39,321 nt of DNA from Nemertoderma westbladi (taxonomy: Eukaryota; Animalia; Xenacoelomorpha), in NCBI GenBank assembly GCA_032718475.1, contig JAUCBJ010006265.1:1-39321 (forward strand), written 5' to 3'. This document shows positions 13,301 through 39,321 of the stretch, one piece after another. The translations under genes and the position numbers were made by a program. Below the pieces are notes generated by a model. It was not told where the DNA came from. It saw nothing but the letters and a program-made list of their open reading frames with translations, and made no database searches. Positions within the stretch are counted from its first letter, which is position 1. Each line of letters opens with the position of its first letter.

Positions 13301-15480
13301 CCACTCCCTGCCTACCAACTACGTGGCCTACCAGGCCCTCGCTGGGTCTATCCAACCCAGCCACTCCCTGCCTACCAACTACGTGGCCTACCAGGCCCTC
13401 GCCGGGTCTACCTAACCCAGCCACTCCCTGCCTACCAACTACGTGGCCTACCAGGGCCCCATCTGTCTGGCCATACACGCCCGACGTGTTTACATTAATA
13501 GCACCCGTATTGGAAACGGAATTAATTTGTTCGTTCGAAATAAAATCATTTGAATTATCTTGCGCGACTACACTATCTGAATTATTTTGTAAATTCGGGC
13601 TCGCTGAATTATTTAAGTTATTTGGATTATTTTGTGTTATTGCATTACTTAAATTATTTTGTAAGTTCGAATTTGGGTTATTACTTTGATTATTTGGATT
13701 ATTTTGCGTAGCTACATTAATATCAGAATTATTTTCTACATTAATATTAGGAATGTTCTGATTTAAATTTAAATTACTACCACTAGGTAAAGTATTTCCT
13801 GCAATAAAGGTTTGATTAGAATTATCCCATACGGTACTATTAATATTAACCACGTCTACTGTACCATTATCATTATTACCCCCCCCCCCCCCCCGCCCGT
13901 ACGGTCACACCAGTTTTGGGTCTGTCGTGCGGTCCCTGTAAGTGGGGTATTAATAAATGTATCCACGGCCCCTGGCTCCTCTAAAATACTCGAGCCAGTC
14001 TCGCTCTCAGACGCCCCCGCCCGCACCATTTGCAACTCATGCGCGCGTCTAATCCTATGTTCCGAAAGCTCACTTTGGCGTCTCTTTAATTCCTTTTGCT
14101 CTCGCTCAGCTTCTGCCATTCTCCTCTCACACTCCCGCGCGTCCTGGCCAGCCAACTCTGCTACTCTCCTAGCGCTCTCCCTTCGTCTCGCTTCACGCTC
14201 TCTGCGTTCACTTTCCTCCCTCGCCTCACGTTTCTCGCGTTCCGCCTCACGTTCCTTTCGTTCACTTTCCTCCCTCGCCTCACGTTTCTCGCGTTCCGCC
14301 TCACGTTCCTTTCGTTCACTTTCCCACTTCGCCTCACGCTCCTTGCGTTCACTTTTCTCTCTCGCCACACGCTCCTCTTGTTCCTTCAACTCTATTTCAT
14401 CATACTCCCTAAGGCTTCTCAAAGCCCTTTCGGCCTTCTCTCCGGTTTCTCTAATCAATGCCGCTTCCCTCTCTAGCCGCATTCTCCCCTCCTCTAGCCG
14501 TTTATCCATTTCCCTCTGACCTTGCTCTATCAGCTCGAGACGGTACGCGGCACCTGCCTCTCTCACCAGTCTTTCTTTCGCGGAGGATGTAGCAGACTTA
14601 TCGGTCACGACGGACTCCCTTCGCCTCCCCGATCTACTAACTTTCCCCCGCTTCCCGGAACTTCCTCCGACCGATGAGGCCGAATCCTCGGGGTTAACCT
14701 CGGATTCGCCCCCTTCTGGTCCCCTCCAACCCACTAATTTTACTCCCCGGGCATCGACCAAGTATGGCCCTATGTACACTGACGCTACGCTAGGTTCCAT
14801 ACTCCCACATTCCCATAGTTCGAACAGTTCACTGGCAACCCCTTTCGCTCTCTCCTCGGCTAGTTCTCTCTGCCCAAAACGCATTAGGTAATTAAAGTGT
14901 CTATCCGACTCACCTAGTCGTTTCCTCAGTCTCACCTCGTCTATCTTCGCCCCTTCCTTCTTAGCGTCCTTTAGTAGTCTCTGGGTCGCGTTGTAGGCCC
15001 GTCGAAGTCGATCAGAAACCCCGACGTCCTCGTCGCCGATCTCTCTTCCGTCTCTCCGGGTCCGACGTCGTACCGGCGGCCCCACCGTCGCCGTTTCGGT
15101 GGGCCGTTCGTCGCCCTCGGCCTGTAGCTGGCCGGCGACATCGGTACCGATATCTCCTTCGTCTCTCTGCGTCCGGGGCCGCACCGTCGGCCCCACCGTC
15201 GCCGTTTCGGTGGCCGCTCGTCGCCCTCGGCCTGTGGCTGGCCGGCGACACCGGTGCGTCGACCCCCGTCCCGTGTCGACTCGTCTCCTTCTCCCTCGAG
15301 CTCGTTCTCTCTATCCTCCGACTCGACCTCAGGTTCCAGGTCCCCCTCGTCCTGAACTGCCGGATGACCCGTTACCGATGGGTCCGGCGTTGTGGGCCTG
15401 TATCGCCTGGTTGCGGCCTCGCGGATCGTTAGCTCTTCGTCCGGGGTCCGCGTCGGTGTTATCTCTCCCGACTGGCTCAT
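10348..15480 (-). pseudogene. BEL/Pao gag-aspartic protease polyprotein, broken by frameshifts and a stop; RT/RNase H/IN deleted
   Basis: ELPPVEPFKFDG...YLQVYTGGPA...LDREYG (DUF1759-like), LITDPVYS, knuckles CQLHANAFHQTMNC and frameshifted CFRC...GQRAREC, protease LVDSGA. Several frameshifts fall in poly-C tracts. Confidence 0.9.
13163..13458. repeat. 60-bp coding tandem repeat (20-aa unit GLVGHVVGRQGVAGLNRPSE), 4 full plus 2 partial copies
   Basis: ACGTGGCCTACCAGGCCCTCG... units at 13201, 13261, 13321, 13381. Confidence 0.95.
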
Positions 15481-15547
15481 CTTTCTTCTGCAGATTTGGT
15501 GGCTGGTGGTTACTGAGTTTATCTAGGGCGGCAGCTATTTTAGTTAC

Positions 15548-16094
15548 TGTGACGGGATCCAAGAGGGATCCCGGTTTACCCGTTGTTAGTTCACGCGTCC
15601 CCGCCGTGTATAAGGAGTGAATGAGTTTGTGCTGTTTGTCGTATATAATATTTGGATATGCAGATATAGATATAGATATAGATATGAGATAATATTGTCG
15701 TATACGGAAGGCGGGATACGGTAACTAAAGTCCCGGTCCTTCCCTAGCTAAACTATGTAACCTAATCTAGCACCGGTATTGCACTGAGATAACTGAATTG
15801 GTATGATTACTGCCAAGTGGCTATATTGCACGGTTGGCCTTGTTACTCTACCTAATCGATGCCTTTCCCCCCTCTGATTGGTTGATACCCTTGTTGGCGC
15901 CCTTTGGAGTGTTCCTGTTCACTCCACCTATTCTCTCTGGGTTAGGGGTTTGGCCCCTGACCCTCATTGTGTGCTTCTCCTTCCCATTCTTATTGGGATG
16001 CCACGAGTTGGTTAATTACCCAATCTTGTGGCTCCCAATATTGCTTATCGGCTTATAACTTTATGGGGTGTTAGCGGGATTGAATAAGCTAACA
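15548..16094 (-). repeat. Full 5' LTR of the inner element (547 bp)
   Basis: Minus strand TGTTAGC...GTCACA, bounded by the TSD, with the gag start 68 bp downstream. Confidence 0.93.
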
Positions 16095-16101
16095 CTATGG
16101 T

Positions 16102-16842
16102 ATGAAAACAAAAAAGGGTATTGAAATTATTAGTATATTGCAAAAAATATTCCAGAAAGGAAAACAAAACAGAATCGCGACTGATCAAGGTTCTGAGTTT
16201 CTAAATAAATCTGTAAGGAAATATTTAGATACGTTAGGTATACAGTATTACGTAATGTACTCTGCAAATAAGGCGGCTATTGTCGAGAGATTCAATAGAA
16301 CATTAAAAACAAAGATGTTCAAAATTTTCACACAACGGGGAAATAATGTTTGGATAAAAATTTTACCTAAGCTTATCTCGGCTTATAATAGGTCATATCA
16401 TAGGACAATACAAATGACTCCCATTGAAGTTAATAAATTTAATGAAACTGAATTAATGAATAGATTATATGGGAAATATAGACAGATTAATCACAAGAAA
16501 ATAAAATTTAAAGTTGGAGATACAGTACGATTATCTATCGCTCGTACTGCTTTTGCTAAAGGCTATCGAGAACAATGGACACGTGAATTATTTATTATTC
16601 ATCGTGTCAGGTTGGATAGAGTACCAGCGGTAATGTTCGATATTAAGGACAGTGCTGGAGCTATAATAAATGGCTCATTTTATTCATACGAACTCCAAAA
16701 GGTCCACCCGAATAGTAATATTTATCTTCCAATTGACAAAAATATTGGCAAACTTAAAGAACGTGTACGCAATGGGAAGAAAGAATATTTAGTCCGATTC
16801 ATCGGATCCAAGAAACAGTCGTGGGTACAGCATATTCAATAA
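16102..16842 (+). pseudogene. Polinton integrase, C-terminal part with chromodomain-like tail
   Basis: IATDQGSEF, KAAIVERFNRTLK, YNRSYHRTIQMTP, FKVGDTVR, FAKGY..QWT.E.F, GSFY..ELQKV, KKEYLVRFIG...SWV. Confidence 0.92.
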
Positions 16843-17086
16843 GCTTAGGTTTATACTGTATATTAATTCATTTTGGTCACATATGTCCGTAATTAATCAA
16901 TATTAACTCGAATGATATTACTATATCTATAGTTCATCCGCTTTAAATAAAGCCAGTAAAATATTGATCCCTCGCATATACTGTAGAAGATGCGACAATG
17001 AACGTGGTCACAGATGTCTATAATTTAACATTATACTGTATGTACAAAGGAGTCAAGTAGAGAGAGCTTAAATAATAATAATAATA

Positions 17087-17953
17087 ATGGCCACAGATAC
17101 ATATATCACTCTACTTTCAGATAGCTCATTAAACACTTATCCCAATAATAATCCTAGCGAGTTTACTGTTGATTTAGCCGAAGAATTATATATTGGTCCA
17201 AACGCTAAAATTGGGCTTGCCGAGCTACAATACCAAGCAACATACAGTAATATTACGCTGCAAACTCAAATCTCGCTGGCAATCGGGGTAGATGCAAAAG
17301 ATGCCAAATTATATAGTTTATTTCCTGGTATGCATAACTCTATTCAAGTCATTATTGATGATATAAATAAACTGTTTACTTCTGAAGCGAAATATAGAGA
17401 TTTCGAATTCATTTTTAATACAAATAATTCTAGAATTAAATTTAAATTTCCTAAAAAGTTGAAAAAAATACAATTAAGTATACGTGGTGATTTAATTCAA
17501 ATTCTAGGCTTAAAACCGTTATTGAATCAGAATCATCCAGGTATTCCGAATTGGGATATATACAGTACCACTACAGTAGATGAATTAAGCAATATAGAAC
17601 AACCGATATTAATTTTAAATTATAGCGGACCAAAAATTTCGGAAATTGGCATTTTAGATTTTCCAGCTCCCACGAATATAACTCGTAATAAAGATACAAT
17701 CTTCATATACACAGATATTATTAAGAGCTCATTTGTTGGCGACGCTTTAGCTCCGCTCTTAAGAACCTGTCCATTAACACAATTAAATCGAAAATATATT
17801 AATCACGAATACGAGAGCATTTGCTATTACCCATTGTTGAATAAAAAACTAAAAACAATATTAATTACTTTACGTGACGGGCAAGGCGAATTAATTAATT
17901 TTAGCGGAGGTCGCACTGTTATAACACTTAAGTTAATACGCGGTGGAGGGTGA
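17087..17953 (+). CDS. Polinton minor capsid (penton-like) protein, copy 1
   Basis: YITLLSDSS..YPNNNPSEF...IGLAELQY at the N-terminus; IFIYTDII..SFVGD..APLLR...YYPL...I.I.LRD..G..INF..G..VITL at the C-terminus. These match the Maverick penton pattern; it lies between integrase and MCP. Confidence 0.78.
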   Translation: MATDTYITLLSDSSLNTYPNNNPSEFTVDLAEELYIGPNAKIGLAELQYQATYSNITLQTQISLAIGVDAKDAKLYSLFPGMHNSIQVIIDDINKLFTSEAKYRDFEFIFNTNNSRIKFKFPKKLKKIQLSIRGDLIQILGLKPLLNQNHPGIPNWDIYSTTTVDELSNIEQPILILNYSGPKISEIGILDFPAPTNITRNKDTIFIYTDIIKSSFVGDALAPLLRTCPLTQLNRKYINHEYESICYYPLLNKKLKTILITLRDGQGELINFSGGRTVITLKLIRGGG

Positions 17954-18803
17954 TGGATGAATTCTACGTTAGACTACCGAGTAACTCCTGTCCAATTGAT
18001 TTTCCCCGCAATAGCGCTAGTAATTATCAGATCAATTTTCATGGTGCCTTACCTATAAATCCAAACGAAAACTGGGTGGTAGGTATAAAAAGTATATTTT
18101 ACTTAGCCACGTTGCCGTCAATGTATAACAATGTAGAGAATGTTATTTTATTAAAAAAAGGGAAAAAAAATTTTGAGGATACACTTCCATCCGGCTTGTT
18201 CTACAGTATCAATGACATTATAGATTATTTTAACACTGGGGCGTTGAAAGATAAATTACAAATAGTTGAAAATACTCAGCAAAATAGGTTGCAATTTATT
18301 TTAGGGAAAGCGGTGCGAGAGTTATTTATAGGTCAACAATTAGCCTATTATTTTGGAATTACTGAAAATAATCTCGGTGCGAATTTAAATCCAAATTTTA
18401 AAATTATTTTGAAGACGAAAAATAATAACATAAAGGGTTATTTAATAAAGGTTATCGGAAATGAAGAAAAAACTTACCAGATGGTATTTTTATGCCCTCA
18501 ACCACCCAATTCTATTCCAGAACCTAAATCGAACATGTACGAGACTACTAATACAATTGAAAATCAATATATTAATGACTTTGGTTTAGCTTTACTTCGT
18601 CGCGTGGCGATACCTGATGACGTGAAATATGGTAGCATAATAAAAATAAAGAATTTGCCAAGGATACAATTCATTATATCCCTGTAAAAAAATCATATAA
18701 GATAACATACATTCATATTGAAATAACAGACAAAGAAGGAAAAGATTTGAATTTTGAATACGGGACAACATCTATTACATTACACTTTAAACAAATAAAT
18801 TAA
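17950..18803 (+). pseudogene. Polinton minor capsid (penton-like) protein, copy 2, one frameshift near 18645
   Basis: FYVRLPSNS...FPRNSASNY...WVVGIKSIFY; LALLRRV; the shifted frame gives HYIPV...IHIEITDKEGKDLNFEYGTTSITLHFKQIN* (stop 18801-18803). Confidence 0.78.
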
Positions 18804-18804
18804 A

Positions 18805-19367
18805 ATGGATTCTGATTTATTTCAAAGATACAGTAAACCTCAAGTGGTGCAGACTCTAATCTTGCTGTTTTTAAAGGTGGAAGAAGTACCAGAGGGTCGA
18901 CGCAAGTTCCTGTTTTTCGAGGTGGTTCATATATTGACCCTTACGGTCAACAAATTGGTGCATTTGGTCCAAACTTAAAACAACGTCGTTTTCAATGTTA
19001 TCCTAGAGGTATGCGGGCAAATCAACACGGGGAAGGTATATTTACAGACGCTTTATCGACATTGAAAAAATTTGGTAAGCCATTAGCTAAAAAAGTTTTA
19101 CAAAAAGCTTTACCATTTACCACAAAATTTATGAGACAACACGTAATACCAAAAGGTAAGCGGGTCTTACATCAGCAGGCTAATACGGTTATTAATAAAG
19201 CATTAAATAAAATGAAACCGTCAACAAGGTCAGTTGTAGAAAAAGTTTATAGAGATTTAAAGCGACCTGCTAGACCAATGTCTATGAACATACATCATCG
19301 TCGTAGTAATAAAAATAGAAAAATAAAAAAAGGCAAACTGAAACACTGCGAAAAAAGTATTTTTTAA
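18805..19367 (+). pseudogene. Small basic Polinton core/maturation protein (pVII-like), frameshift near 18843
   Basis: Joined reading: MDSDLFQRYSKPQ/GG...AVFKGG...PVFRGG...QHGEGIF..LKKFGKPLAKK...K/R-rich...SIF. Q-x-G-x-G motif and position just before MCP are typical of Mavericks. Confidence 0.65.
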
Positions 19368-19369
19368 TA

Positions 19370-20629
19370 ATGTCAATTATTAAGGAATTAGATTTATTTT
19401 CTACACAGCCAATACAGACTGAATTTAAAGCAAAGCATTATGAAACAATTTACCCAGTATCTAATCTCAGAAGTGAGTCTAGGGAAGTCACGTTCCTTGT
19501 ACCGAGATCCAATGAATTCTATACGAAACTGCAAGATGCGTTATTAATTACAAAATGTACTGTACGGTGGGATAGACGACTTGAAAACTCTCATATATAT
19601 ATGTTGAATTACCCTTCTGGGACTATGTGGAGTGATATTAAAATAGACTTTAATGAGAAGCAGGTTGAAAATAGCAATAACCATTATTTCTACAAGTCGT
19701 ACTTATCCAATTTATTATTTACAACTTAGGAGGATAAAAATGGGCTACTGGGTGCGGGCGGCTTTCGTCAACCTTTAACCGAACATGGAAATGAAATTAA
19801 TCCTGACGCGCATCCTATTGGCGATGCCTTTAGTAAACAAATGCAATTTGTAAGTGGATTGACGATTGATTTTGATACTGAAAGTAAAATAATACAACCC
19901 GGGTATGATTTAAGAATGCATTTTAGAAAAGTATCAAATTCGTTTATTTTTAAAATCACTCCAAACGCAAACGCAGTGACAAATCTTCGATTAGAATTAG
20001 ATGAAGTAAAGATCCTAATCCCTAGAATGGAGGTTAATCCGGTAATAGAAAGCAGTCACCTAAAAGGTTTAGAGAGTTACGATATTGAATATCAATTCCA
20101 AAAAAAGGAGGTTACAACATTTACTATTCCCGCTCAAACCACAAATTACACACAAACAAACATATTTGATGGTAAAAAACCCAAATTAGTTATTATCGGC
20201 TTCATAACAAATAACGCTTATTCTGGAGAATTAATTAGTAATCCCTTGAAATTTGAACATTTTAACCTTAGACGCGCGGAACTGATTGTAGACGGTCTTC
20301 CAGTAGGTGGTGTAATATACGAGCCTAATTTTACAGATGGAACATATATTTTTGAGTATACTCAATTAATGAAGAACATTAATACATATATTAACGGTTA
20401 TGGGTGTAATAATATAGACCATGAAACCTACTTAGGTAATTGCCCCCTCCTATCCTGGGACCTAAACGCCGACGGCTATGTTAGAGATCCGCAACCGTCG
20501 ATATATACTAACGGCCAATTAAAATTAAGATTTGCCGAACCGTTGGTTGAGACCATAAATGTAATCGTTTTTAATATTTATGATCAATCATTAAGTTTAA
20601 ATAGCTGGAAAGAAATACATATCGATTAA
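19370..20629 (+). pseudogene. Polinton major capsid protein (double jelly-roll), one in-frame TAG at 19727-19729
   Basis: ORFs 19370-19729 and 19841-20629 share a frame. Motifs ELDLFS.QPIQT, NIFDGKKPKLVIIGFITNNAYSG...NPLKFEHFNL, L.LRFAEPL.ETINVIV. Confidence 0.88.
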
Positions 20630-20631
20630 GT

Positions 20632-21084
20632 ATGTTATCTACAGAGGACCTTGATATGTTTCCAGTGGGTGGTCACTATTTGGGAGCGTTTCCAGCTAAG
20701 AAATTACCTAAATTAGATAATAATAATAAGCGAAGAGATTATGGGTTAATAGTAAATACCGATAAAGAGCATCTGCCCGGGATTCATTGGATCGCAATAT
20801 ATATACGAGATAATGAGGTTGAATTTGATTCGTTTGGGCCAAAATATCCAAACAGATGCATCGAAAAATGGCTTGAGAAAAATTCAGCGAGGTGGCGTAC
20901 TACTCGCAAACAATTTCAAGACCCCAGGAGGACCACATGCGGCCTATACTGTCTCTATTACTTGGTAAATCGAATTGACACAAACTATCCAATGAGAGCG
21001 TTTACAAATAATGTAGAAATAAATGAAATAATATTATATAAATGGCTTGTTAATTATTATAAAATAAACCAACAAGCGTTGTAA
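20632..21084 (+). CDS. Adenain-like (C5-type) cysteine maturation protease
   Basis: IVNTD...PGIHWIAIY (His), FDSFG (Asp), QFQ....TTCGLYCLYYL (Gln/Cys); directly follows MCP. Confidence 0.93.
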   Translation: MLSTEDLDMFPVGGHYLGAFPAKKLPKLDNNNKRRDYGLIVNTDKEHLPGIHWIAIYIRDNEVEFDSFGPKYPNRCIEKWLEKNSARWRTTRKQFQDPRRTTCGLYCLYYLVNRIDTNYPMRAFTNNVEINEIILYKWLVNYYKINQQAL

Positions 21085-21115
21085 TTAATCATTTAGCTTT
21101 TGTTTATCAGATAAA

Positions 21116-21691
21116 ATGGATAATATTATTTTTGTTGATTTTCAATACTATAAGATAGACAATAAAGAGTATCCGGTAGTATTTAAAGAATTTGCTATAT
21201 TCGATTCTAATTACACCAAAACTAATGTAAAGATGTTTTTATTTAAAGGTCCTCCTAATATTAAGTTATCAGCTTTAGATATAGCTCACGTAAACAATTT
21301 ACGAGACATGACTTCGCATTTACCTTGGGATTACGGCGACATTTCGCAAGATGACTTTAAAAAATACATGAAGAGACATTTAAAATATAAAAAAAATAGT
21401 CATGTATTTGGGTTGATGAAGCAGGCAATATTAGTTTCCCAACTTGATGTTCTCGCTCCAAATTCGATGGAGAAATTGGGAATATATCGACTATATTACA
21501 ACTATTTAACCCCCTGTCGCTTCCACGATCAATTAACTACAGTAGAAGATAAATGTAGTTTCCACTTAAACACAAGGGATAACTGTCTGCGGTACTGCTC
21601 AGCGAAAAGGGTTGGAGGGTATGTAACGAAGCGTTCAACTGCGTCAGGTGATAAACAGAAAGAAATAACTGCGGTGGAAGATGTACTGTAG
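21116..21691 (+). CDS. Polinton accessory protein, possibly degenerate DEDD/RNase H-like fold with a Cys/His tail
   Basis: IIFVDFQ...VFKEFAI...FLFKGP...HLPWDYGDI...CSFH...C-S resembles a recurrent Maverick ORF. Function is inference only. Confidence 0.55.
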   Translation: MDNIIFVDFQYYKIDNKEYPVVFKEFAIFDSNYTKTNVKMFLFKGPPNIKLSALDIAHVNNLRDMTSHLPWDYGDISQDDFKKYMKRHLKYKKNSHVFGLMKQAILVSQLDVLAPNSMEKLGIYRLYYNYLTPCRFHDQLTTVEDKCSFHLNTRDNCLRYCSAKRVGGYVTKRSTASGDKQKEITAVEDVL

Positions 21692-23030: not shown

Positions 23031-23585
23031 CTAATCACCAATATATTCTACACCTAAAGTCACAACACCAAACATTAATAAATAATCAACAAGTTTACTA
23101 AATATAGGGTAATAAATATGAAATTTGCTAGGTGAACACATTAAAGTACATTTACCGGTATGAAAGCAGCAAATGACTACGGTATTATTTATTCTTATTT
23201 TGCAATTATTAAAAATTTCAGGTTCATATATAACTTGAAGTTGCACATTATCAAAGACAACATAAAACCCGGTATTGTTTATCAATAACCTATAGACTAC
23301 AGACTTAATACTAAAAATATAAGTACATAAATTAACAGATTTTAAAATCAAATTAATACTAGTTTTATCAAATATATGCTTTTTTACTTTATGGAAATTA
23401 TACTTACTGCCTAATAATATAATACGACCATTTTTAAATATTAATAATGTGGCACCAAATATCTTATATATAAACTGATTTGGTTTGAGTATGTGTTTAC
23501 CAGATAATTGATTTTTTAATTCTTTAAAATTAATCGCTGACACTTGCTGGCAACTTACATTCTTATTAACTATCTGATAGTTCAT
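23031..23585 (-). CDS. Divergent TATA-binding protein (TBP)-like protein
   Basis: Two saddle half-repeats: ATLLIFKNGRIILLGSK (cf. TBP TALIFSSGKMVCTGAK) and YEPEIF...VICCFHTGKCTL (cf. YEPELF...LLIFVSGKVVL). 184 aa fits the TBP core; intronless and overlaps the PolB stop. Confidence 0.8.
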   Translation of the reverse strand: MNYQIVNKNVSCQQVSAINFKELKNQLSGKHILKPNQFIYKIFGATLLIFKNGRIILLGSKYNFHKVKKHIFDKTSINLILKSVNLCTYIFSIKSVVYRLLINNTGFYVVFDNVQLQVIYEPEIFNNCKIRINNTVVICCFHTGKCTLMCSPSKFHIYYPIFSKLVDYLLMFGVVTLGVEYIGD

Positions 23586-24135
23586 TGTTTGGTTCCCGAT
23601 AAATAGGTATATTGTTTTTCTTTATCGGTTTTTCGAGCTTTGTTTGATAGTGACCCCAAGGAAGTGAATGATTTTTATTAACCCAATAAAGTTTATCGTC
23701 AAATGCGCTGAGAGCAAACTTATCTCGTGCTACAGTGTACACTTTGTGTAATTGGCTCTGAAATTGATGCGTTTCCTTGGAAATTTCTTGGTTATCCTTA
23801 TATGCTCTTAAATAATCTTCGTGGCAAATATTTTTATCCACGACAGCTCTTGTTATTCCTTTCGCCCGTCGTATATTCGTTTCATTGAATTCCAAAATTG
23901 AATATAATTTTGGTCTTAAAAATACCGCTTGTTTAATTTCACGTGAGGCTAGTTCATCTTTACAGTAATAGAGTCTGGATTTATTTTTATCGCTGTAGAG
24001 AGGGTTATCCTTGGGGTAATTGGATGTATCTAAAATATTATTTTTAATTAAGGCTTTTAAGAAATTACTCTGCGATGTATTATAGTAACAACCTATTAAA
24101 GAGTCCGTATCTGATGCTACAATATCAATTCGGCA
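23566..24135 (-). pseudogene. Protein-primed family B DNA polymerase, C-terminal ~190 aa, fused in frame to BEL Gag
   Basis: SDTDSL, LDTSNYP.DNPLYS..N, KDE, LRPKLYS, AKGI, LSAFDDK, SLPWGHY are Maverick PolB C-terminal motifs at the end of ORF 23566-25710. Confidence 0.93.
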
Positions 24136-26547
24136 GGGTTCTGCAGGGTTGTTAAGTCTGGTCCTATCCCGGGGATTAAAACTTACCTGCTCCGCGTCCG
24201 TCCTTCTTTCCTTATAGTTTCGGGACTTCTGACGTCTCATGTCTTCCTCTTCATCGCTCGACTCGGTGTCAGTACTTAGCGCTCGCGATGGTTTGCGCGC
24301 CGAGGCCCTGACCCAAGCATCTTGTATAAACTTCTCAGCTGAGTTTTCGAAATTGGGATTATGGATATTTGGGACAGGCATCCTTACCTGAGGTCTATGT
24401 GGTATAGTCTCCTCCGATATGCGTACTCGTTGACTAGGCTGGACTTTATCTAACTCAGGCCTGCTAGGATTTGAATTACTTCTTACCTGGGTTGCTTCCT
24501 TTAACTGTAGGTTACTAAGCATGTCCGTTATAGGTTGGATGTGTGGCGATATAGTTTGCGCTAAACTGGCACTTAACTCATCCCTCGTAATAAATTCCTG
24601 GCTAGGGTTCTGTTGTATAGTCGGCTCTATCTGAGTAATCCGCTGTCTCTCATATGATCCCTCTTCCGGTTTAACCCGGAAGTTCTCCGTCGAACTGGGT
24701 CGGCGCTCCGTCCGCGTATTCCAAACCCGCGGGTTCGGTTCGCCCAATACTCGTCTCGTCAGAGTTTCTCTAAACTCTCCGTTGTCTCGTTCGGTGTACA
24801 GTGGTGCGGTGTTCTGATGACGTGGATTCTGCGCGATAGGTGAAGCACTAATACCAACTGGCGTGCGATATGTAGAGAACGGTTTAGCAATCCGTGTACT
24901 CGTAATAGCTGGACCGGGTATAGGAATTCTGGTCGTCGTCGACTCGCGTATAGTCGGAGTTCTCGCTTCCTGTTCGGCCTTCTGCAGTGCGAACAGTTCT
25001 CGCAACTCGGTACCTACACTCGCCCCACATTCTTCGATCATTCGCATCCCCTTCTCGGCGATTTCATTCGCCTTTCTAGTCCGTTCCTCGCACTCTAGGG
25101 TTAATCTCGCACTTTCCAACTGCGCCAGTTTACGTTCTTCTTCTTCCCTCACTCGTCTCGCTGCGCTCTCTTCTTCCACATGCGCCTTTTCTTCATACAA
25201 CGCTTGTCGCTCTTTCTCGATCTCGAGTTCGCGTTCCTTACGTTCGCGTTCAAGTTGGAATTCGTGTTTCTTCACTTCCCGTTCGCGTTCAAGTTGGAGT
25301 TCGCGTTCTTTCTGTTCGCGTTCTTTCTGTTCGCGTTCAAGTTGGAGTTCGCGTTCAAGTTGGAGTTTGCGTTCCTTCTGTTCGCGTTCCGCTTGCTCAT
25401 GCTTACCTTTCTCTTCCAACTCCCGCAACTTTGCGTCTAACTTACGTCTTCGCTCCCTTTCTCGTTCGGCTTCCTTCCGTGCTTCCGATGCACGCAAAAC
25501 TTCCGCCTGTTGTTCGTCCAGTCGGCGTCTTCTCTCCTCTTCCGAGTTGTGCGAAACAAGGGATCTAGCATATATAACTTTCCCTCGCGCGTGACTAACC
25601 TGGGAATTGCCACTGTCTCTGGATGCGTCGTCGGGTGGAGTCAACGTCCTCTGTTGAATGTTCTCCGTCGTCGGTAGCACCTGGCCTGGTACCACCACTC
25701 CATTCTGCATCAGTCAGCTAGTAACTTCCCTCTGATAACGGCGCTCTTCTTTATCTTGGATCTCTTCCCGCTCCTCTAAGTCTCTTAAATCTGCGTCACT
25801 CACCTGAGTCGCCTGCGCTTGTGATGCCCATAGCAACCAGTTTTCCGTCCTAACTCGTCGAAATCGCTCCGATAACTCGCGGTGCTCTGACAAGGCTGCT
25901 AAAACCCTATCATAAACCCTCGTCTCCACGTCGCTCGACTGAGACTCTACTGCCTTCTTTGCTAGGACTGCAAGCTCCTCCGTCTGTTTGAATAACGCTG
26001 AGTTGTATCCTCTTCTAATCTCTATTAACCCTTCCCTGTCGATGTTCGCCGAGTCGGCTAACATCTTCCTTACCTTGTCCGCCGTCCGAGTTATATGTCC
26101 GGCATGCGCGCGAAGTTTCTTCTTTATCGCAATATCAAGTTCTCTCTCACTTACCTGACTCACACTTGGTGGACTTGAAGGATTATTTCGGGAACTACGG
26201 GTACTCCTTACAGCCGCTGGGACCACGGCACTTACCATACCCACAGGTCTGGAAACCGGGCTCCGGGCTCTCGCTTCTGCTACACTACCCTCCCTATCAC
26301 TCACCTCTGTCCGGGCTGCTGTGCGGTCCTTCCTTACAGTAGTGGTAGGGGATCCTAATACTATTACCTCACCTTGTTCTTCCTCACTGGTTACTGTCTC
26401 ATCCTCCTGTTCACTTACGTCAGCGTCGCTCGCTGCATCGTCATAGTCGGCATTGTCGTCAACAGTAATATTGACACTATCGTCAGTCGGCGGTCCAGCC
26501 GCCGTCTCATAGCTGTCCTCTAGTGCCTCCTTGTCTGAGACACTCAT
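24136..26547 (-). pseudogene. Gag N-terminal region of the outer BEL element, one in-frame TGA at 25714-25716, truncated at the PolB junction
   Basis: ORFs 25714-26547 and 23566-25710 share a frame. KKLRAHAGHITR motif, long E/R coiled coil, located downstream of the 5' LTR. Confidence 0.75.
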
Positions 26548-27749
26548 AGTCTAAATAATGTTTGCCTTCCGGCAAAATATCTCGCAAAAGTTCGAGATAT
26601 ATATATAATTTAATCGAAATACGATTAAATTATTTGACAAATAATCAGTTGGTCCAAAATGTCAAAATAAATTCGCAATGCAATATTGTGAATTTAATGG
26701 GGTATATAGTTATAGCAAATACTAGCACAATATTTAAACAAAAATATTATTATATAGCTATTATAGCAATTAAATACCGGTATGACACAAAATAGTTTCT
26801 GAATCTAATACAAAATATTCAGAATGAATTTGCCACCCAAATAATTCCAATTTTGCATATATAGCTCTAATCAACGTAATTTTAATTTCAAATATTATAT
26901 GTATCCACTAGCGCGTGGCTACATCTTCGGGTTGCGACTCTCTCTAACTCTCTCTCTAACTTGAGCGATTCAAAAAACCATGGCCGGCTAAACCTAAATA
27001 TCCTAACTAATAAATTGAGTTCAGCTTTGCAGTTAAACAACCGATAATTTTTTACTGCTTCCACAAACACAATGGTGCCAACAGAGCAACTAACCTTGTT
27101 TGCTGTGAGATTCCACGTCCGCGTCCAAAGATTCAGGCTCTTCGCTGATTGCAAACCGAACCCGCAGACCCACACGAACCCCAAACTCAGAAGTTCTGTC
27201 TTGCCATGTATCTCCAGATGGTATAAAATAACTAAGCGGTTACCTAACATACCGGTACAAAACTCTAGAATTTTACAAATAATTTTGACCGAAACTGAAT
27301 TCTTGCAAACCTAGCTAAAATTAAAAAAAACTTACTAATTACAATTCGCCCTAAGGCCTAAGGAACTGCTGTATTCGCAATTAGTAAAAACGCACTACCG
27401 TACATCCACTGTATGCAGTACAGTAAGTAAAACAGTACACCAACCTAACAGCCTAATGATACTGTGTGTGGTACGGCAAAACAAATGTCCCTTCTACCGT
27501 ACGCAGTAACAGCAATCAGCCTAATGTACTACTGTACTATTGTACGCGACCAGTGAATACAGTAAGCTAAACTAACAGCCTAATAATACACTCGATGTTC
27601 TACCGTACGCAGTACAGTGCCTAATACAGTAGACAATATCACGTGCTCTAACTTATTACTTAATTACTGCAGTAACAGTGATCCTACCTATCAGCCTAAG
27701 AATACACTCTTGACTGCTGCAAGCAACAGCCAATAAAAGCATACCTTAC

Positions 27750-29978: not shown

Positions 29979-32155
29979 GTAACACTTACATTTATATAGA
30001 AGTAATCAGCTATTCATTGCTTCGCCTTTCCTCTGGAGATGGATGAATTTTGATTCCGTCGGAACACCCCCTTTTTGAGGCTCTAAGAGGGAAGAGATAA
30101 GTAGCCTATCCCCCTGTTAATATTGTTGTGTTCTAGAATATTTATTATAGTTTCATCGAATTGCCAAAGCGGCTGGAGCCGAAGTTAATATGTGATACAA
30201 TAATTCACCTCAAATTTCTCAGCTATTTCATGAATATAATGAGTATTAAAGCCATGTCTAAATCATTGGGGTTTTTCAGCAATAATTTATCAAAATCTCC
30301 TTTGATTTTTTTCAAAAACCACATAGATTTTCATATTTATAACTTCTAACCCATTCCACGAGATAGAGAATCTTAAATGAAAGTCATAAGAACAGGCAAC
30401 ACTTTCATTTATAGAAGTAATCAGCTGTTATTTGCTTCGTCTTTCCCCAGGAGATGGATGAAATTTGATTGCGTCGGAACACCCCCTTTTTGAGGCTCTC
30501 AGAGTGAAAATATAAGTAGCCTATTTCCCTGTTAATTTTGTTCTGTTGTAGAATATTTATTATAGTTTCATCGAATTGCCAAAGCGGCTGGAGCCGAAGT
30601 TAATATGTGATACAATAATTCACCTCAAATTTCTCAGCTATTTCATGAATATATTGAGTATTAAAGCCATGTCAAAATCCTTGGGGTTTTTCAGCAATAA
30701 TTTATCAAACTATCCTCTGATTTTTTTCAAAAACCACATCGATTTTCATATTTATAACTTCTAACCCACTCCATGAGATAGATAATCTTAAATGAAAATC
30801 AAAAGAACAGGTAACACTTTCATTTATAGATGTAATCAGCTGTTATTTGCTTCGTCTTTCCCCAGGAGATGGATGAAATTTGATTGCGTCGGAACACCCC
30901 CTTTTTGAGGCTCTCAGAGTGAAGAGATAAGTAGCCTATCTCCCTGTTAATATTGTTGTGTTCTAGAATATTTATTATGGTTTCATCGAATTGCCAAAGC
31001 GGCTGGAGCCGAAGTTAATATGTGATACAATAATTCACCTCAAATTTCTCAGCTATTTCATGAATATAATGAGTATTAAAGCCATGTCAAAATCCTTGGG
31101 GTTTTTCAGCAATAATTTATCAAAATATCCTCTGATTTTTTTTCAAAAACCACATCGATTTTCATATTTATAACTTCTAACCCACTCCACGAGATAGAGA
31201 ATCTTAAACGAAAGTCATAAGAACAGGTAACACTTTTATTTATAGAAGTATTCAGCTGTTATTTGCTTCGTCTTTCCCCAGGAGATGGATGAATTTTGAT
31301 TGCGTCGGAACACCCCCTTTTTGGGGCTCTCAGAGTGGAGAGATAAGTAGCCTATCTCCCTGTTAATATTGTTGTGTTGTAGAATATTTATTATTGTTTC
31401 ATCGTATTGCCAAAGCGGCTGGAGCCAAAGTTAATATGTAATGCAATAATTCACCTCAAATATCTCAACTATTTCATGAATATAATGAGTATTAAATCCT
31501 TGTAAAAATCCTTGGTGTTTTTCAGCAATAATTTATTAAAATCTCCTCTGATTTTTTACAAAAAACGACATCGATTTTCATATTCATGACTTCTAACCCA
31601 CTCCAAGAGATAGACATTAGACAATCTTAAACGAAAGTCAAAAGAACAGGTAACACTTACATTTATAGAAGTAATCAGCTATTCTTTGCTTCGCCTTTCC
31701 CCAGGAGATGGATGAATTTTGATTGCGTCGGAACACCCGCTTTTTGACATTAGACAATCTTAAACGAAAGTCAAAAGAACAGGTAACACTTACATTTATA
31801 GAAGTAATCAGCTATTCTTTGCTTCGCCTTTCCCCAGGAGATGGATGAATTTTGATTGCGTCGGAACCCCGGCTTTTTGAGGCTCTAAGAGTGAAGAGAT
31901 AAGTAGCCTATTTCCCTGTTAATATTGTTCTGTTGTAGAATATTTATTATAGTTTCATCGTATTGCTAATGTGGCTGTAGTTAAAGTTGTTATGTAACAC
32001 AATAATTCACCTCAAATATCTAAGTTTTTTCATGAACATAATGAAGTATTAAAGCCATGTCAAAATAATTGGGGTTTTTAAGCAATAATTTATTAAAATT
32101 TCCTCTGATTTTTTTTCAAAAACCACATCGATTTTCATATTTATAACTTCTAACC
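29979..32155. repeat. Satellite array continued, ~5 monomers, with an internal 133-bp duplication (31613-31745/31746-31878)
   Basis: Same monomer as 6252-9055; resumes in register after the TSD. Confidence 0.97.
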
Positions 32156-34036
32156 TGTTAAACGAACTACCCCAGCCTAACCAATAAAGACACAAACTGC
32201 TCTATTTACTAGACGGGGCAATGAGGAGCGTATAATTACTAATAATAGGGTTTCAGATACGGAAAACCACTACTTACCGTTAGATGGCGCTAATCTGCCG
32301 TCCGCTAATATATTTCCTAAATTTCTACAGCTCCTACTAAATTCTCGTTCCTTTCTCTACCGATTACTCGATAGAGAGCTAACTGTTCGAATATATATGA
32401 GCCACGCGGGAATAACCAAAACAATAAACCCGAATCGGCTCCCTTAGCTGACTTAAAACGAGTGTGAGAGATTTGACACTCAGAGTGTATTTTATAGCCT
32501 AATATTACTGTAAAATTGTGCTTACAACTACGTCCTTTCTAATCGCATCTAATCGCAATACTGGGGTTCCCTAACGGAATGTGTGAATGTGAGAATATTT
32601 AAAATAATCGAAAATTGGTACGGTAATTATTTCGGGACTCAAACTTATCTGCGGCTGGCTTTAGGCCAGCAATTTACTGATGCGCGCTGCGTACTGTATA
32701 CTACGATGTGAATTTTGTCCGCTAATTCAAATAACCGCCCAGCGTGAATAGTGTACGGTACTCTAAATTATTACCTTAACTACCCTCCGCTATGCAGCGT
32801 ACAAATTCCTAATTTTACTAATTAATTTCAGTCACAAATATGTAACGGCGTACTAATTACTAAGTATTCCAGAGTGCGTAATTCTAAATTATTACGCAAC
32901 CGGCTACGTCTAGGCTTCCTAACTAACCCAATTCCTGTCCCCCTAATACTACAAAATGCTACAAAAACCTGGATCATCAGCCCCTAATTGCCGAACCGGC
33001 GTATCTGACCCACTCTATGCTGCAAACTTGCGCGCAATAGTAATCCCCCCAATGTCACTTGTCTTTGAATCCTCCGCACTCCCGTCGTCGCTAACCCCCC
33101 GATGCACCCGCCGCGCTTACCGGTACCCTAGCCCTCCATCATAATGAGTAGCTACCGTAGCGGCACATGCAAATCACAAAGTCTGACAGTCTGAGAAATC
33201 CCGTAGGATTATTGTCGAAAGGAATCACATAGAACCATTTACTAAGGGGTAGAAATCATAGTTCCAATTTGTAATTAACAGCGATCATTGAGATTGATTG
33301 AGAAACACAAACAAGAATCAAACAGAAATTGCAAATTAGCGAATCATTGCAAGAAAATCAAAAGGGCAGTAATTTACACAGAAAAAACTAAGCATCGAAT
33401 AATAGTTGAAGGTGAGCTGTGTGGGGTGTGTGTAGAGACAATGGAAGTACGCCAATTTATAGGTGATTTGAGAAGGGTGATGCAATCGATCTCTCATTGG
33501 CTCCCCAATCCGAGCTAACATTAGACCAACCTGGAAGCAGTTAGGCCAATAAGAGAGCCGGATTGTGAGCCTATTGCTCCCTGAAATCGCAAATTGCCAC
33601 CATATAAGGTAATTTTCCCGATGCTTAATTTGGCGGTACTAATAATATCATGCACAAATATAAATTTAGCGCAATTATAGAGAAATTAAAACCAGTAGCT
33701 AGCCTCATCAAGGCTAATAACGGCAAGCCCAGATCCAGGGTCCAACAAGGACTTGCTACCCTGGAACTATCTACTTATATCCTATTACAAAACTACATAG
33801 GTAGGGCTACATACTATACAAAATGGATGAGTTCAAAATATATGGGCGTTTCAGTTTCCTTATCTAAATATCATTGCGCATTATGCCTTATCTAAATAAT
33901 TATACTGCATCACGGACTAATATATGATACTATATAATGGACTAATATATTATAATGCATAATGGACTAACATTATTATACTGTATAACGGACTAATGTA
34001 TTACATAATGTAGGTACAGCGCCATATACCGTAACA
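32156..34036 (-). repeat. 3' LTR of the third element (1881 bp), diverged relative of the 27750-29978 LTR
   Basis: Same termini (TGTTACGGTATATGGCGC...TTTAACA) and colinear similarity. It lacks ~280 bp present at ~28580-28860. Confidence 0.92.
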
Positions 34037-34043
34037 CCGCTCC
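34037..34043 (-). promoter_or_regulatory. Polypurine-tract-like motif
   Basis: Minus strand GGAGCGG immediately precedes the TG of the 3' LTR; the same motif occurs at 4085-4091 on +. Confidence 0.55.
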
Positions 34044-34467
34044 AAGGGAAATCATGCAATGTTTCCCTCCAATTGTAGAAGAGTGTAAGGCGATGTATAC
34101 AAAACAAAATAAATCTCTTTCAAATAATCTAAATATCTTGGTACTATAATAATTCTACTATTTACAAATATTGCTATAGATATTGCATAATGAATTGCAT
34201 ACAAATTAAATTTACAAAATATTATCTCTCTCTCTCAATGTTAACAATTATTACATACAAATTAAATTTACAAAAAATACTGTTTCTCATTCGTTCTACA
34301 TAATGATTGCTACATACAAATTAAATTTACAAAATACTTTCAAATTATAAAAAATTTTGCTAGGGTAGGTGAAAAGAGTAAGCCAAACCCGCAGGTTTGT
34401 CTCCCCAATCACCTCCTTCGCCTCTCTCATAATATGAATCCAAATCAGTGCGACTAGTGTATATGAG

Positions 34468-36779
34468 TCAAGTCGGATATTTACAAATGCTACAATATAC
34501 ATCAGAGCGACGATGATGTATATATCTAGAGTCTGTCGCCCCGTGATACGATGCATTACTGACCCGCTCCTGGGTTCTTCGGGCTCGCTCCTCTCTTTCG
34601 CCCCCTACCCAGATACACCAATCGTCCTCCGAACACCAATGAATGACGCTTCTAAACTCGCGCAATGATATCCGCTTATAAACAAGTTACCGTGTTCGAC
34701 TCAAGAACCAAATAATATTGTGTGACGCACGGGGTGGCGCGTAAATGTTCCAATACACTAATGCTTGCCGCTTGAAGTGGGATTTGAACTCCGCTCCCGG
34801 TGGCGTGTTATATTCACCATACGCTTCCTCATATTTCTTCTGCGTCTTCAACTTGAAGTCCCAATTATACAATAAATGTGCTATGAATCCCATACCAGTC
34901 TTGGCAGAGTTGGGATACTCCCTATAAATTCCAATGTCTTGTGCCCATAGCAACAATAGCTTGGTGTCGACAAACGGTCTCGGCAATCTATCTTCTAAAT
35001 CAGTCATGGCGTTGAAGTCACTCTCCAAATCGCTCTGGACTCCCGATCCCACCTTGACGTAATCTTGGCTAAGAATCGCCTCTCTAACCTTCTTGGGTAG
35101 CATCCTGGCATCGATACGCTCCGCTCCGTGCATACCTCCTCGCCTGCATACCTCCAAAATCTGTTCCCTAGGATCCTTCCCTTTCCGATATTGCGCCGTG
35201 ATTATGGGCTCCGGTCTCTCTCTATCCGCCCTTACGCGCATAAACACATGAGTCACACCATCAGCCACGCGAATTTGAATGCACTTACTAGTCAAGCATT
35301 CCTGTTGAGACCCTCCTTCATTGTCGTAAAACATCACTTTCCAATCTTGCAGTGATTCCTCCGTTTTCCTCCACTGACGCTGAATCTCATCGGATGGGGT
35401 CCACATGCGCTCGATAGCCTTGTGGTCGTCATATCGGGTGTAAGATCCCTTTCTCCTCAGCCACGCCCGGTCTACCTCCTCGTCATCTGGGAATGTAGCC
35501 ACTGCGACCCATACCTTAATGTACTTGTCTAACCATCCAAATAACTTACTCTCTTTTCCCGGAGCTCCAATCTTATCCAATGTGTCGTAGTCTGTGATCT
35601 GCATCGGGACATCACACCAAGAACTTCGCGCATAAAACTTCCCGTAGACAGTCGACGTTCCAAATGATCCAACATCCTCACCATCGGCAAGAATCTAATC
35701 GCTTCTCGCGACTCCAGGTGATCTACCAATATCGCAGGTTCGCTACCGTCGGAATAATACACCGGTCGGGGTTGAGATACGGCCTGTGGAACAAATCCGG
35801 TCACTCTCCTCGTCTCCTCTTGATGTCTATCCGCGGTCTTATTATATTCCGCTATCCGCGCTTCGAATAATTGTTTCGCTTTCGCCGCTCGCTCCTCCTG
35901 CCGCAATGCGTCTATGTCGTCCTGATGCTCAGGCGTGAGAGCTCTCACTCGATGAGGCGAAGTAAACGTAGTCCAGGGACTTGAGAGCTCCAAACCCGCA
36001 GGTTTGGTACCCGAGTCCCGTGCTGCTTCGCGCCGCACCTCTAGGTCCTTGTAGGCTCGGTACAGCGAAATGGCCGCTGCTGTCTCTATCAAACTGGGTG
36101 TCGAACAGGGTTTAATCTCCGTATACGGATCTAAAGTCGTAACGGTCGGCGTAATGGGTCTTGGAGGTTGCTTTCCACTGAAGTCGATACTGATCATCGG
36201 GTTGCTCATTGGGTAACCTCCCTCGTTATATCTAAGGAACTGATGAGCTTGACATCGCGTTAATATCGGTTCAGGATGATGCTCGTCCAATCGGTCGGGA
36301 ATTGCTACGTCTTGTTTGTTCATGCATTCACCACATTTGTAGAACAACTTGTATACACTGAAGACCTTCGACGTCTCTTGATCCTCGCCTCGAGTCCTCC
36401 GATACAGATGCATTCCGTCGAACTGATCTCGGACTGCAGGTAAAGGCTCTTTGTGTCGTAAATACATGTTCATATGGTACAGCTGCGCAATCTCCTCGTC
36501 CGGGTCTGCGCTAATGTCGCACACGTCTAACGCGAAATCGTAGGGATACCGAGTGCGATACTCTTTCCGCAAAACTTCCATACAGTCCCCCAACGCTCTC
36601 ATTCTTTCCCTCCTTAACTCTTTATCATAAGCGGGTTTATACTTCACATTTAGCTCCATCACCGACCTACCGTGGTAGTAAACATTCGAATCCTTACATC
36701 CCGGTCGGGCAAATGGCAGCTCCGCCTCCTCTCTGGCAGTAAATCCTCTCCGCGGTTGCGCTCAAATTTCCTTCTCCAT
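34468..36779 (-). pseudogene. Extra retrotransposon ORF (~770 codons) with C-terminal DEDDy 3'-5' exonuclease (WRN/EXD-like) domain
   Basis: ATG 36779 is in frame with 35529-36662 (one TGA). There is a frameshift near 35600, and 34687-35604 is in frame with 34468-34665 (one TAA). Motifs FYDNEG, CIQI, LPKKVREAILSQDYVKVGSGVQSDL, FVDTKLL, GMGFIAHLL...LK. Confidence 0.72.
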
Positions 36780-37537
36780 TATGCGCGTATATACATATAT
36801 ATATATCCCAATAAGGTTCCGTTACGTAACTAATTACACTGTGGGTAAATCAGTTAGATGTCGCCGAAGGACAGACCTCTTGAGCCCCCCCCCCGCCTTA
36901 CAGCAGTTCAGGTTCGACTCTCTAGATCCCGTCTCATTCCTAACTATTCTCTAACCTATTCCCATACATAGCGCAAAAACTTTGGAGGTAAACTGGCCAT
37001 GACCAACTCACTTTTTGATGCCCAAACTACTCCCATTACTTGTACTAAACTACAGTAGTTAGAAAGGACCATAATCTCAATGCTCGACTATACCAAACCC
37101 ACAGGTTTGATAATCGAACATCACACTTCACTGCAAACTACTGAGTGGGGTCCGTGTACGCCCTGGTGCTACTAACCTTTAGCACCTTAGTTGTACTGTT
37201 GGCACCAATCTGTGGAAGTTGCTAAACTCAATTTACACTCCTACGTAATATAGCCGTCACCATGGTTTCTAAATGCTATTTTCCAGGCTTCACGACTTTT
37301 CAAATTACTGTTTATCTATAGACGAATTCAGAATGCGTCTATACACAGTGTCTGGAATTGTCTTGGGTTCACTTCTAATTTTTTAAAAATTTCTAATTTT
37401 CCAAAAATTTTTTGAAAATAAAATTTTGTTTTGATACCCACCAGACAAAACTCAACGCAAATCACCACAAACCCGCTCCTATGCATTTCCTAGTATTTGC
37501 ATACGAGGAATGCATACGAAGTGAGTTGCGTCCAACA

Positions 37538-39319
37538 CTAATTTTGTTTTGAGGCAGGAGACAAATTACAATCTCCAGTCTCGATGCGTGTCTCCTCTAA
37601 TAACACGATATCTTGGACCGGTCGATCCAAGGTGTGTAAACCATTAGTTTTACACTTCTTTGGGTGCGGACACTTGCACCTAATTTTCACAGTGACTGTG
37701 CGCACTATGTTTTGCACGTCTGGGTGTATATGCAAGATGACTCCCGTCTCCCAATATTTTCTCTTGACAATCGGCTCGGTTATCAATACGTAATCTCCCC
37801 TTTGGAGACTCCGAACCGTTTTGTACCACTTTGTTCTGGTAGATATGGTGGGAAGATAGTATTCCCGCCAATATTCCCAGAATGTGTACGCGACTAATTG
37901 TGTTACTTTCCAGCTTTTTCGACTATATAGGTCGGCACTAATGGGTTCTGATGCCGGCACAAGAAATGCTGGACTCTGCATTAGCAAATGATTCGGCATT
38001 AATGCAACACCGTCTGGCAACATAGCTATCGGCCTCGAGTTCAGTGTATGCTCGATTTCGATGAAAGCTGTGACCAGCTCGTCGTCGGTAAGTTGTTTGT
38101 TTACAGGCAATGTCTTGGCAATGGCCTGCTTTACAGAGCGAACTAAACGCTCCCAACTTCCTCCTCTCCAAGGACTTTCTGGAGTATTGAATCTCCACTC
38201 TATTCTTTGCGGCAAAAGTGCTGCAGAAATTTATTTATTCTGTGCCGCTTTATGAGCCGCGTTCAACTCGCTATTCCCTCCGACAAAGTTTGTACCCTTA
38301 TCGGAGTAGAACGCCTTTACTAGTCCTCTCCTGGCCATAAATCTCTTCAAGGCCAGGAGCAGAGATTTGGTCGACATGTCTGCCACACGCTCGATATGTA
38401 TGGCTCTACTAGCCATACATGTCAGTAGCAGGCCCCATCGTTTGTGGGTCAGCCGTCCACTCTTTGCCTCAATCGGACCAAAACAATCCACCCCTGTGTT
38501 CGTAAAGGGTGGGTCATATGCCTGCACTCTCGCTTCCGGGAGTTCAGCCATCTCCTGTTCCAATACTCTGGCGTTCACCCTCTTGCAAACCAGACAGGCA
38601 TCGTACATAGTGCCGACTGCCCTGCTTGGCTGCAATAGAATGAATCGCTGTCTCGCTGCCGACAAACAGTGTAACTTTCCCGCGTGATGCAACCTCTTGT
38701 GTATATCCCATAGAATCGCTCTTTGCAATTCTATTGGGTGACTCGGGATTATCACAGGGAACCTGAACTGTGAGTCAACTGTAAACTGTCAACTGTTAAC
38801 TGTAACAGTCTGGATTCTCGATCTATGACAAATCAAACCCTTATGGATTAATGGACTCCATTTTCTAAGGGGTTTATAGAGAACTGGTCGTTGAGCCGAT
38901 GATAGATGGAATTCTTTTGGGAAGGCACACATTTGATAATGCTTCAAATGATTTAATTCCGCTTGATCAATCTCATCCTCTGTCAGAGGTTGTTTCAATT
39001 TCTGAATTCGCTCACTATTAGTGCTCAATTGTTCTCCTAAATGTTTCGAATGTTTTATACAAAGGTACGAAATGTATCGGCTTAACCACGCAGTTCTTTT
39101 ACAAATTGTCAGCCAAGAGGCAGACAAATTTATTAATTTGTCATAAATACTACATGGCTCTAATGCCAGCGATGGTTGTCTGCTAACTAATGGAAGTTTC
39201 GAATCCAAACCCGCAGGTTTGGAAACCAAAGGATCCATTGTGTCGGTCATTTTCTGTCCGTCACTTACCAACTGTGACTCTGGTTTAGTCTGTAAGGGTG
39301 GTTTTACGTCATAACTTAC
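37538..39319 (-). pseudogene. BEL/Pao pol C-terminus (integrase), two in-frame stops
   Basis: Three ORFs in one frame: HHCC finger (HKRLHHAG...CLVC), GVDCFGP, TCMASRAIHIE, SDKGTNFVGG, GGSWERLVRSVK, LNSRP, DUF5641-type tail. Confidence 0.95.
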
Positions 39320-39321
39320 CC

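Follow-up and report, generated by a model that had tools for sequence, protein, structure and literature searches.

BEL/Pao elements carry gag, pol and sometimes env (PMC8742986; likewise the accessible part of PMC3118150). An earlier note, made from the letters of the sequence, proposed that a BEL/Pao element of Nemertoderma westbladi carries in the env position a gene for a WRN/EXD-like 3′-5′ exonuclease. We followed up this proposal in the whole stretch of DNA from which it came, 39,321 nt in length and hereafter called the window. The window is eukaryotic and repeat-rich; besides two arrays of a 415–419-bp satellite and a Polinton-like block it contains several LTR elements of the BEL/Pao type. 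The element in question lies on the minus strand with its 5′ half beyond the window, and all of its features below are on that strand.

The host element was identified from its pol end. The 3′ part of pol (RNase H tail and integrase, 37538–39319) runs past the end of the window and contains the Pfam domains DUF5641 (E 2.9e-18), which we take to be a marker of BEL/Pao, and Integrase_H2C2 (E 4.1e-6). Its integrase is 43% identical to another BEL integrase at 2147–2653. Two in-frame stops (38791 and 38233) interrupt the pol of this copy ahead of its stop codon at 37540–37538. The 3′ LTR, the only one of the pair within the window, was delimited by homology to its counterpart in a sister element (29978–27750); the two LTRs are 73–84% identical in blocks and about 79% alike. 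It measures ∼1881 bp (TGT...ACA, 32156–34036) and has the TG...CA ends typical of BEL/Pao. The pol domains and LTR ends bear out the BEL/Pao assignment of the earlier note, and the assignment rests on the integrase end because the 5′ half, where a BEL/Pao element would have its gag with a triple Cys-His box, protease, RT and a primer-binding site for tRNA-Arg or tRNA-Gly, is outside the window. At 1.9 kb the LTR is longer than the 0.2–1.2 kb quoted for BEL/Pao (Belpaoviridae). At the place where BEL/Pao elements have a polypurine tract of about 10 nt, a short GGAGCGG stands directly before the TGT, with a purine run ∼25 nt further 5′.

The LTR end of the element runs into the 415–419-bp satellite, and loose contig ends at 32155 also continue as satellite. 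The sister element (LTR 29978–27750, remnant 9305–9056) is flanked by a 5-bp target duplication, GTTAC (29983–29979 and 9055–9051). Both of these related elements sit in the satellite at different positions, one of them at the 32156 junction, and a preference for the satellite as insertion target is possible. A TGG-type primer-binding site is the usual expectation after a 5′ LTR; no obvious one was seen downstream of the 5′ LTR of the sister element (27750–27700, minus strand). A motif resembling TGGTGCCAACAG occurs inverted at 27067–27093 and again at 37187–37213, in the spacer downstream of pol in the element studied here. The sister element also hosts a nested BEL/Pao-like element (9953–15943, minus strand) with 396-bp LTRs that are 99% identical, a DUF1759 gag and an internal deletion. 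The Polinton-like block (16093–21691, plus strand, and 23031–24100, minus strand) encodes an rve integrase, an adenoviral-type C5 protease and a TBP-like ORF (PF00352, E 8.4e-9). It presumably also includes capsid-like ORFs and what appears to be the tail of a DNA polymerase B, fused in frame to the gag of the sister element.

The extra gene, here called ORF3, is a sense-strand third ORF between the pol stop (37538) and the 3′ LTR, as the earlier note had described. It starts with an ATG at 36779 and meets an in-frame stop at codon 6 (36764–36762), after which the frame is open for 410 codons (36761–35529) and overlaps an open stretch of 335 codons in another frame (35694–34687). The non-coding spacer between pol and ORF3 (36780–37537) has 14–19 stops per frame, and spacer and 3′ UTR together have 9–19. 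Thus, the long open frames of ORF3 are not due to chance. A pyrimidine-plus-AG scan found two weak splice-acceptor-like sites in the spacer, at 37050 and 37045.

We aligned the contigs of three public DNA runs, X1, X2 and X3, to the element (X1 and X3 are from one sample); a further run, X5, contributed only 2 contigs, and X4, possibly an RNA run, was left out. Nearly all other depth of X1–X3 disagrees with the window copy at two indels of one base each, one near 35.62 kb and the other near 34.72 kb, and the stop just past the second indel is likewise not common to other copies. The window copy is therefore a broken one, and both halves of ORF3 form one frame in most copies. ORF3 had been reconstructed at ∼770 codons with two stops and one frameshift, which holds as a reading of the window alone. 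The frameshift near 34.72 kb is a second one and private to this copy, and places the last ∼85 codons of that reconstruction off frame, so that neither its length nor the end at 34468 could be retained. The intact ORF3 is predicted to be about 700–710 codons long.

Is ORF3 a regular part of the element? In each of X1–X3 contigs cover all 30 bins of 32100–39321. The summed depth of the ORF3 bins is about 17,000–59,000 and that of single divergent contigs about 8–130; depth is not copy number, and these values show that very many near-identical copies of the ORF3-bearing element exist. Among the joints listed, those that bypass ORF3 in whole or in part (34516–37353, depth 12.6; 35780–36709, depth 33.4) have the depth of single contigs, and we found no long terminal inverted repeats at the ORF3 edges. 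An independent insertion of ORF3, the alternative named in the earlier note, is rejected on the low depth of the listed joints and the lack of long edge repeats, and ORF3 appears integral to the element. The pol bins have about 2–3 times the summed depth of the ORF3 bins. Related copies or families without ORF3 may therefore exist, or the better-conserved pol of relatives may contribute to this depth.

We then looked at how the copies vary within ORF3. Forty of 128 variants were listed, of which 39 were used; six beside the second indel were set aside and 25 were classed as subfamily variants. Eighteen of these 25 listed sites are synonymous, where a fraction of about 0.30 is expected (binomial p 2e-5). 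Of the 20 sites that separate the window from nearly all copies (8 and 12 in two comparisons), 11 are synonymous (p 0.017). The predominance of synonymous variants argues that ORF3 is a selected family gene. It is a strong hint of the purifying selection that the earlier note had asked about, and it is not a dN/dS estimate, since the sites are 40 of 128 and a single divergent contig accounts for many of them.

What does the gene encode? The C-terminal half (34652–35617), which in the window copy contains the frameshift near 34.72 kb and then the stop, resembles a divergent WRN/EXD-type DEDDy exonuclease domain. In the ESM Atlas, residues 90–335 scored 0.92, and 24 of 30 matches fell in one set, described as “Werner syndrome-like exonuclease”, in which 38% of the members carry PF01612. 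The query shares 166 of 256 features with this set, slightly fewer than the 170 that a true member typically shares. An HMMER scan of 1.84 billion representatives gave a sole homolog, P0001 (E 8.9e-4 library-wide), which is 31% identical to the window protein over 98 aa of the ExoII core. P0001 is a protein of 648 aa from one ENA contig of 9449 bp, with its exonuclease domain at the N-terminus followed by CCHC zinc knuckles; the domain of ORF3, in contrast, is C-terminal. The stretch of P0001 aligned to the window protein has a weak PF01612 match of its own (E 0.2). P0001 may be another transposon-borne nuclease.

Profiles of the two proteins were compared with a reference set of 14 bacterial PF01612 domains, 12 of which are stand-alone. 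The set had been revised after a shuffle test: L173 (wrong frame) and L174 (a different exonuclease type) were dropped, L175 and L176 were added, and L177 was not used. HHalign placed the pair of window protein and P0001 on this set with a probability of 65% (E 6e-5, score 36.4), and the maximum score in 60 column shuffles was 22.5. The window protein alone reached 9% (E 0.0035, score 25.3; maximum of 60 shuffles 18.0), P0001 alone 89%, and the N-terminal half, used as a control, 0.3%. A plain HMM score was marginal, with 9 of 500 shuffles as good, and was obtained while the set still held the two wrong rows. When the pair profile was run against 40 bacterial genomes it gave six weak matches, two of them inside stand-alone PF01612 genes. 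In the 16-row alignment of window protein, P0001 and bacterial domains, D26, E28 and K116 never vary, and G118 and D124 are nearly invariant.

Structure prediction was less telling. From the single sequence, without seeding, AlphaFold returned a model with pLDDT 34; seeded with the 16-row alignment it reached pLDDT 51 and pTM 0.49. The seeded model resembles At5g06450/RICE, Exd1, WRN and Nibbler (Z 9.8–9.1, rmsd 4.0–4.6, 150–161 residues aligned; best match Z 9.8, rmsd 4.2, 161 aligned; top neighbors 1vk0, 5fiq, 2e6l and 7jw6). These matches are circular because the model was built on DEDDy homologs, and they speak to compatibility only. Foldseek found no match to the seeded model at E ≤ 0.001. 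What favors an RNase H-like DEDD fold is the profile and language-model comparisons.

Direct searches with the window protein were blank. Pfam gave nothing at E ≤ 1, below the PF01612 gathering score, in a scanned frame that excluded the ExoIII part. NCBIfam and PHROGs returned no match, and neither did PDB sequence searches; for P0001 the latter matched only the CCHC knuckles. Word-based homolog searches were equally blank among 968 candidates near the length of the C-terminal half, among 1262 longer proteins, and among 2148 with the pair alignment. Scans for related loci found nothing in viral contigs, metagenomes or prokaryote genomes, and tblastn against plasmids and phages gave only noise at E ≥ 0.1. 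Taken together, the Atlas set, the homology to P0001 and the HHalign comparison nevertheless uphold a WRN/EXD-like domain in the C-terminal half of ORF3.

The motifs listed in the earlier note, namely FYDNEG, LP-x9-VKVGSG-x3-D, FVDTKLL (34974–34954), G-x3-A-x2-L-x4-K and CGEC, are all present. ExoI is FYDNEG at 35314–35331, with its aspartate at 35325–35323 and its glutamate at 35319–35317, the invariant D26 and E28 of the alignment. ExoII, VKVGSGVQSDLESDF at 35014–35058, has its aspartate at 35031–35029; its lysine is invariant and its glycine and aspartate nearly so, and this block is the best-scoring stretch in the P0001, HMM and HHalign comparisons. The D-x-E of ExoI, at the end of strand 1, and the ExoII aspartate after KVG-x5 are both traits of PF01612.

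ExoIII is different. The canonical Y-x3-D is absent from ORF3, and the earlier note had read ExoIII as YWNIY, decayed by a GAC>TAC change. This reading was dropped, as the base that differs there in nearly all other copies does not give an aspartate; by position the tryptophan of YWNIY corresponds to the conserved tryptophan that precedes ExoIII. An alternative register from MAFFT, with NWDFKLKTQKKYEEAY placed on the bacterial NW...Q..YAA, was also set aside as less likely: it offers no ExoIII acid, and P0001 lacks the W and the Q-x2-Y there. The candidate that fits, YYLVLES at 34697–34717, is read in a different frame just beyond the second break and has the form Y-x3-E. Here YYLVLESNTV aligns with YYIYCENTTI of P0001, and 7 of 2000 shuffles were as good, compared with 1837 and 1641 of 2000 for the other two frames. 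As the window protein and P0001 both have Y-x3-E, the predicted site is D-E-D-E. An active enzyme with such a site has a precedent in RICE1, in which glutamate replaces the last aspartate; the accessible part of the report describes it as atypical and metal-independent (PMC5451212). We consider a DEDDy fold with a Y-x3-E ExoIII very probable from the sequence comparisons, with the non-canonical ExoIII read from one homolog.

The sparse similarity could also be illusory, or ORF3 could be a passenger, either a decayed host fragment or an unrelated protein carried neutrally. This is what the blank family searches and the single homolog among 1.84 billion representatives (E 9e-4) would lead one to expect. 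However, a passenger is at odds with the ordered ExoI, ExoII and ExoIII motifs, the synonymous bias, breaks that are private to the window copy, and the agreement of Atlas and HHalign. This explanation is already weakened, and we think it very unlikely.

Relative to the families it resembles most, WRN, EXD1, EXD2, Nibbler (mut-7) and RICE, ORF3 shares the order of ExoI D-x-E, an LP...KVG...D ExoII and a W...Y-x3-acid ExoIII. It differs from WRN/EXD (PF01612) proteins in that it falls below the Pfam threshold, has glutamate for aspartate in ExoIII and is encoded by a transposon. It also has, as we read the alignment, a ∼40-residue insertion after strand 3, and ∼30 residues before the ExoIII tryptophan.

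The N-terminal half (35620–36779, including the in-frame stop at codon 6) matches no known family: Pfam, NCBIfam and PHROGs gave no match and the Atlas no usable one, and it stays unrecognized, as in the earlier note. It contains a C-x2-C-x24-C-x2-H pattern (36335–36243), which is possibly a zinc site and includes the CGEC (36335–36324) noted before. A Pro/Ser/Thr linker and a charged stretch at about 35950–35800, helical as read from the sequence, were also seen. We found no transmembrane-like segment in ORF3, where the maximum hydropathy over 19 residues is 0.70, for the N-terminal half, and 0.88. With neither such a segment nor a family match, the N-terminal half is not an envelope. The env-like ORF3s of the BEL/Pao elements roo, Cer13, Tas and Atlas are third genes in the matching position (PMC8742986; and, in their accessible parts, PMC9094657, PMC13524379 and PMC554778). 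Unlike them, ORF3 has no hydrophobic transmembrane segment and no similarity to envelopes.

Juno and Vesta of bdelloid rotifers are Ty3/gypsy-like LTR elements. DEDDy ORF3s are known from both, and also from Athena/Terminon (Rodriguez, Kenefick and Arkhipova, 2017, PMC5408684, accessible part). The novelty of a nuclease as cargo was therefore overstated at first, nuclease ORF3s of LTR retrotransposons being already in print. The rotifer ORF3s have a DEED motif and a function that is untested according to the accessible parts of PMC5408684, PMC5718144 and PMC6338049; no demonstrated function for any DEDDy ORF3 was found in the available portions of the literature searched. They are like ORF3 in being separate, sense-strand, non-envelope genes between pol and 3′ LTR, and in having a DEDDy fold whose acidic motif is altered. 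They differ in their host, which is BEL/Pao here, and in the motif, D-E-D-E with an ExoII aspartate and an ExoIII glutamate rather than DEED. ORF3 is also set apart, by description, as WRN/EXD-like rather than RNase D-like and by its long N-terminal half. P0001 shares the D-x-E, the D and the Y-x3-E. Our literature search found no BEL/Pao exonuclease ORF, and a search for the term “exonuclease” found it absent from PMC3118150, PMC2774666, PMC554778, PMC9094657 and PMC13524379; Repbase/GyDB, subscription papers and supplements may hold a precedent, for example among nematode Cer elements. As predicted from its sequence, what is new in ORF3 relative to the rotifer genes would be the different superfamily, the WRN/EXD-like type, the D-E-D-E site, the long N-terminal half and a set of companion hairpins.

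These hairpins are four long structures predicted in the sense RNA, with unrelated lower stems and one common, near-palindromic 16-nt tip. The tip motif, AAACC-YGYG-GGTTTG, occurs at four sites in the element (9 matches over the two strands, where 0.02 would be expected). The tips are located inside pol (39206–39220, z −4.16), in the spacer between pol and ORF3 (37094–37108, z −4.69), inside ORF3 (35991–36005, z −3.78) and in the 3′ UTR (34384–34398, z −4.36), that is, 1.1–2.1 kb apart and with two within coding frames. When their lower stems were compared with shuffled flanks, 2, 2, 18 and 12 of 500 shuffles were as stable. Rfam has no match within 32000–39321. We regard the hairpins as candidate signals for packaging, dimerization or export.

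With such hairpins at hand, the DEDDy domain could be mainly RNA-binding, like that of Egalitarian or EXD1, and ORF3 could recognize the four hairpins and export, localize or package its own RNA in a Rev/RRE-like manner. Besides the spread of one identical tip along the sense RNA (z −3.8 to −4.7), this possibility can draw on the non-canonical ExoIII and on Egalitarian, whose exonuclease-homology domain contacts stem-loop signals and makes no use of its catalytic residues in doing so (accessible part of PMC13186709). However, the acids are kept at all four sites, in the distant homolog too, which suggests metal binding. In addition, the sister element has a weaker related tip motif within its gag (24722–24736, z −1.85), so that the hairpins could be recognized by Gag or by a host protein. 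We find a purely RNA-binding role unlikely, while still worth weighing.

We instead favor a nuclease function. The nuclease may, as the earlier note supposed, have been captured, in this case from the host. Nibbler/mut-7 and EXD1 relatives have roles in small-RNA pathways. Part of this background is also given in the accessible text of PMC5408684. Because the four acids are kept and the nearest cellular families act in small-RNA pathways, we propose that the ORF3 protein could be an accessory RNA exonuclease that blunts the small-RNA defence of the host, an explanation for which, taken as a whole, we see the balance as even. ORF3 would be expressed from a spliced or subgenomic RNA. Its N-terminal half, with the possible zinc site and the helical segment, would target the protein to small-RNA or element RNPs, where the exonuclease would trim guide RNAs, or the cleavage products of these, at their 3′ ends, and more genomic RNA would survive for reverse transcription. 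That separate expression, targeting by the N-terminal half and trimming of guide RNAs all hold jointly is a tentative suggestion by analogy, drawn from knowledge of the family, and we lean slightly against it.

A nuclease could also act inside the particle, where it would trim the 3′ ends of primer tRNA or genomic RNA, or polish or proofread cDNA ends before integration. RNA ends and ssDNA are both acted on by DEDDy enzymes, Rodriguez et al. propose processing of retrotransposon RNA 3′ ends in the accessible part of their paper (PMC5408684), and the lack of the usual TGG-type primer site after the 5′ LTR of the sister element is in line with such a role. We nevertheless judge action within the particle to be quite improbable.

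Returning to the anti-silencing proposal, a more far-reaching form of it would be that a BEL/Pao element encodes the control of its own RNA, with the nuclease of predicted D-E-D-E site and possible zinc site paired with four cis hairpins by which the element marks itself. This is a speculative reading to which we give little weight. If it were true, the nuclease would degrade the guides of small-RNA silencing, or RNA that lacks the mark, and would spare or ferry hairpin-bearing genomes, the family would amplify inside satellite heterochromatin, and the D-E-D-E nuclease would come from a widespread, undescribed transposon-borne subfamily that includes P0001.

Few descriptions exist of animal LTR retrotransposons whose accessory genes encode enzymes. 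The selected, WRN/EXD-like ORF3 of this highly amplified BEL/Pao family would extend exonuclease cargo to a second LTR superfamily, and in a family of so many copies the natural variation is sufficient for tests of selection. The ORF3 family thereby makes anti-silencing factors encoded by animal transposons a testable question.
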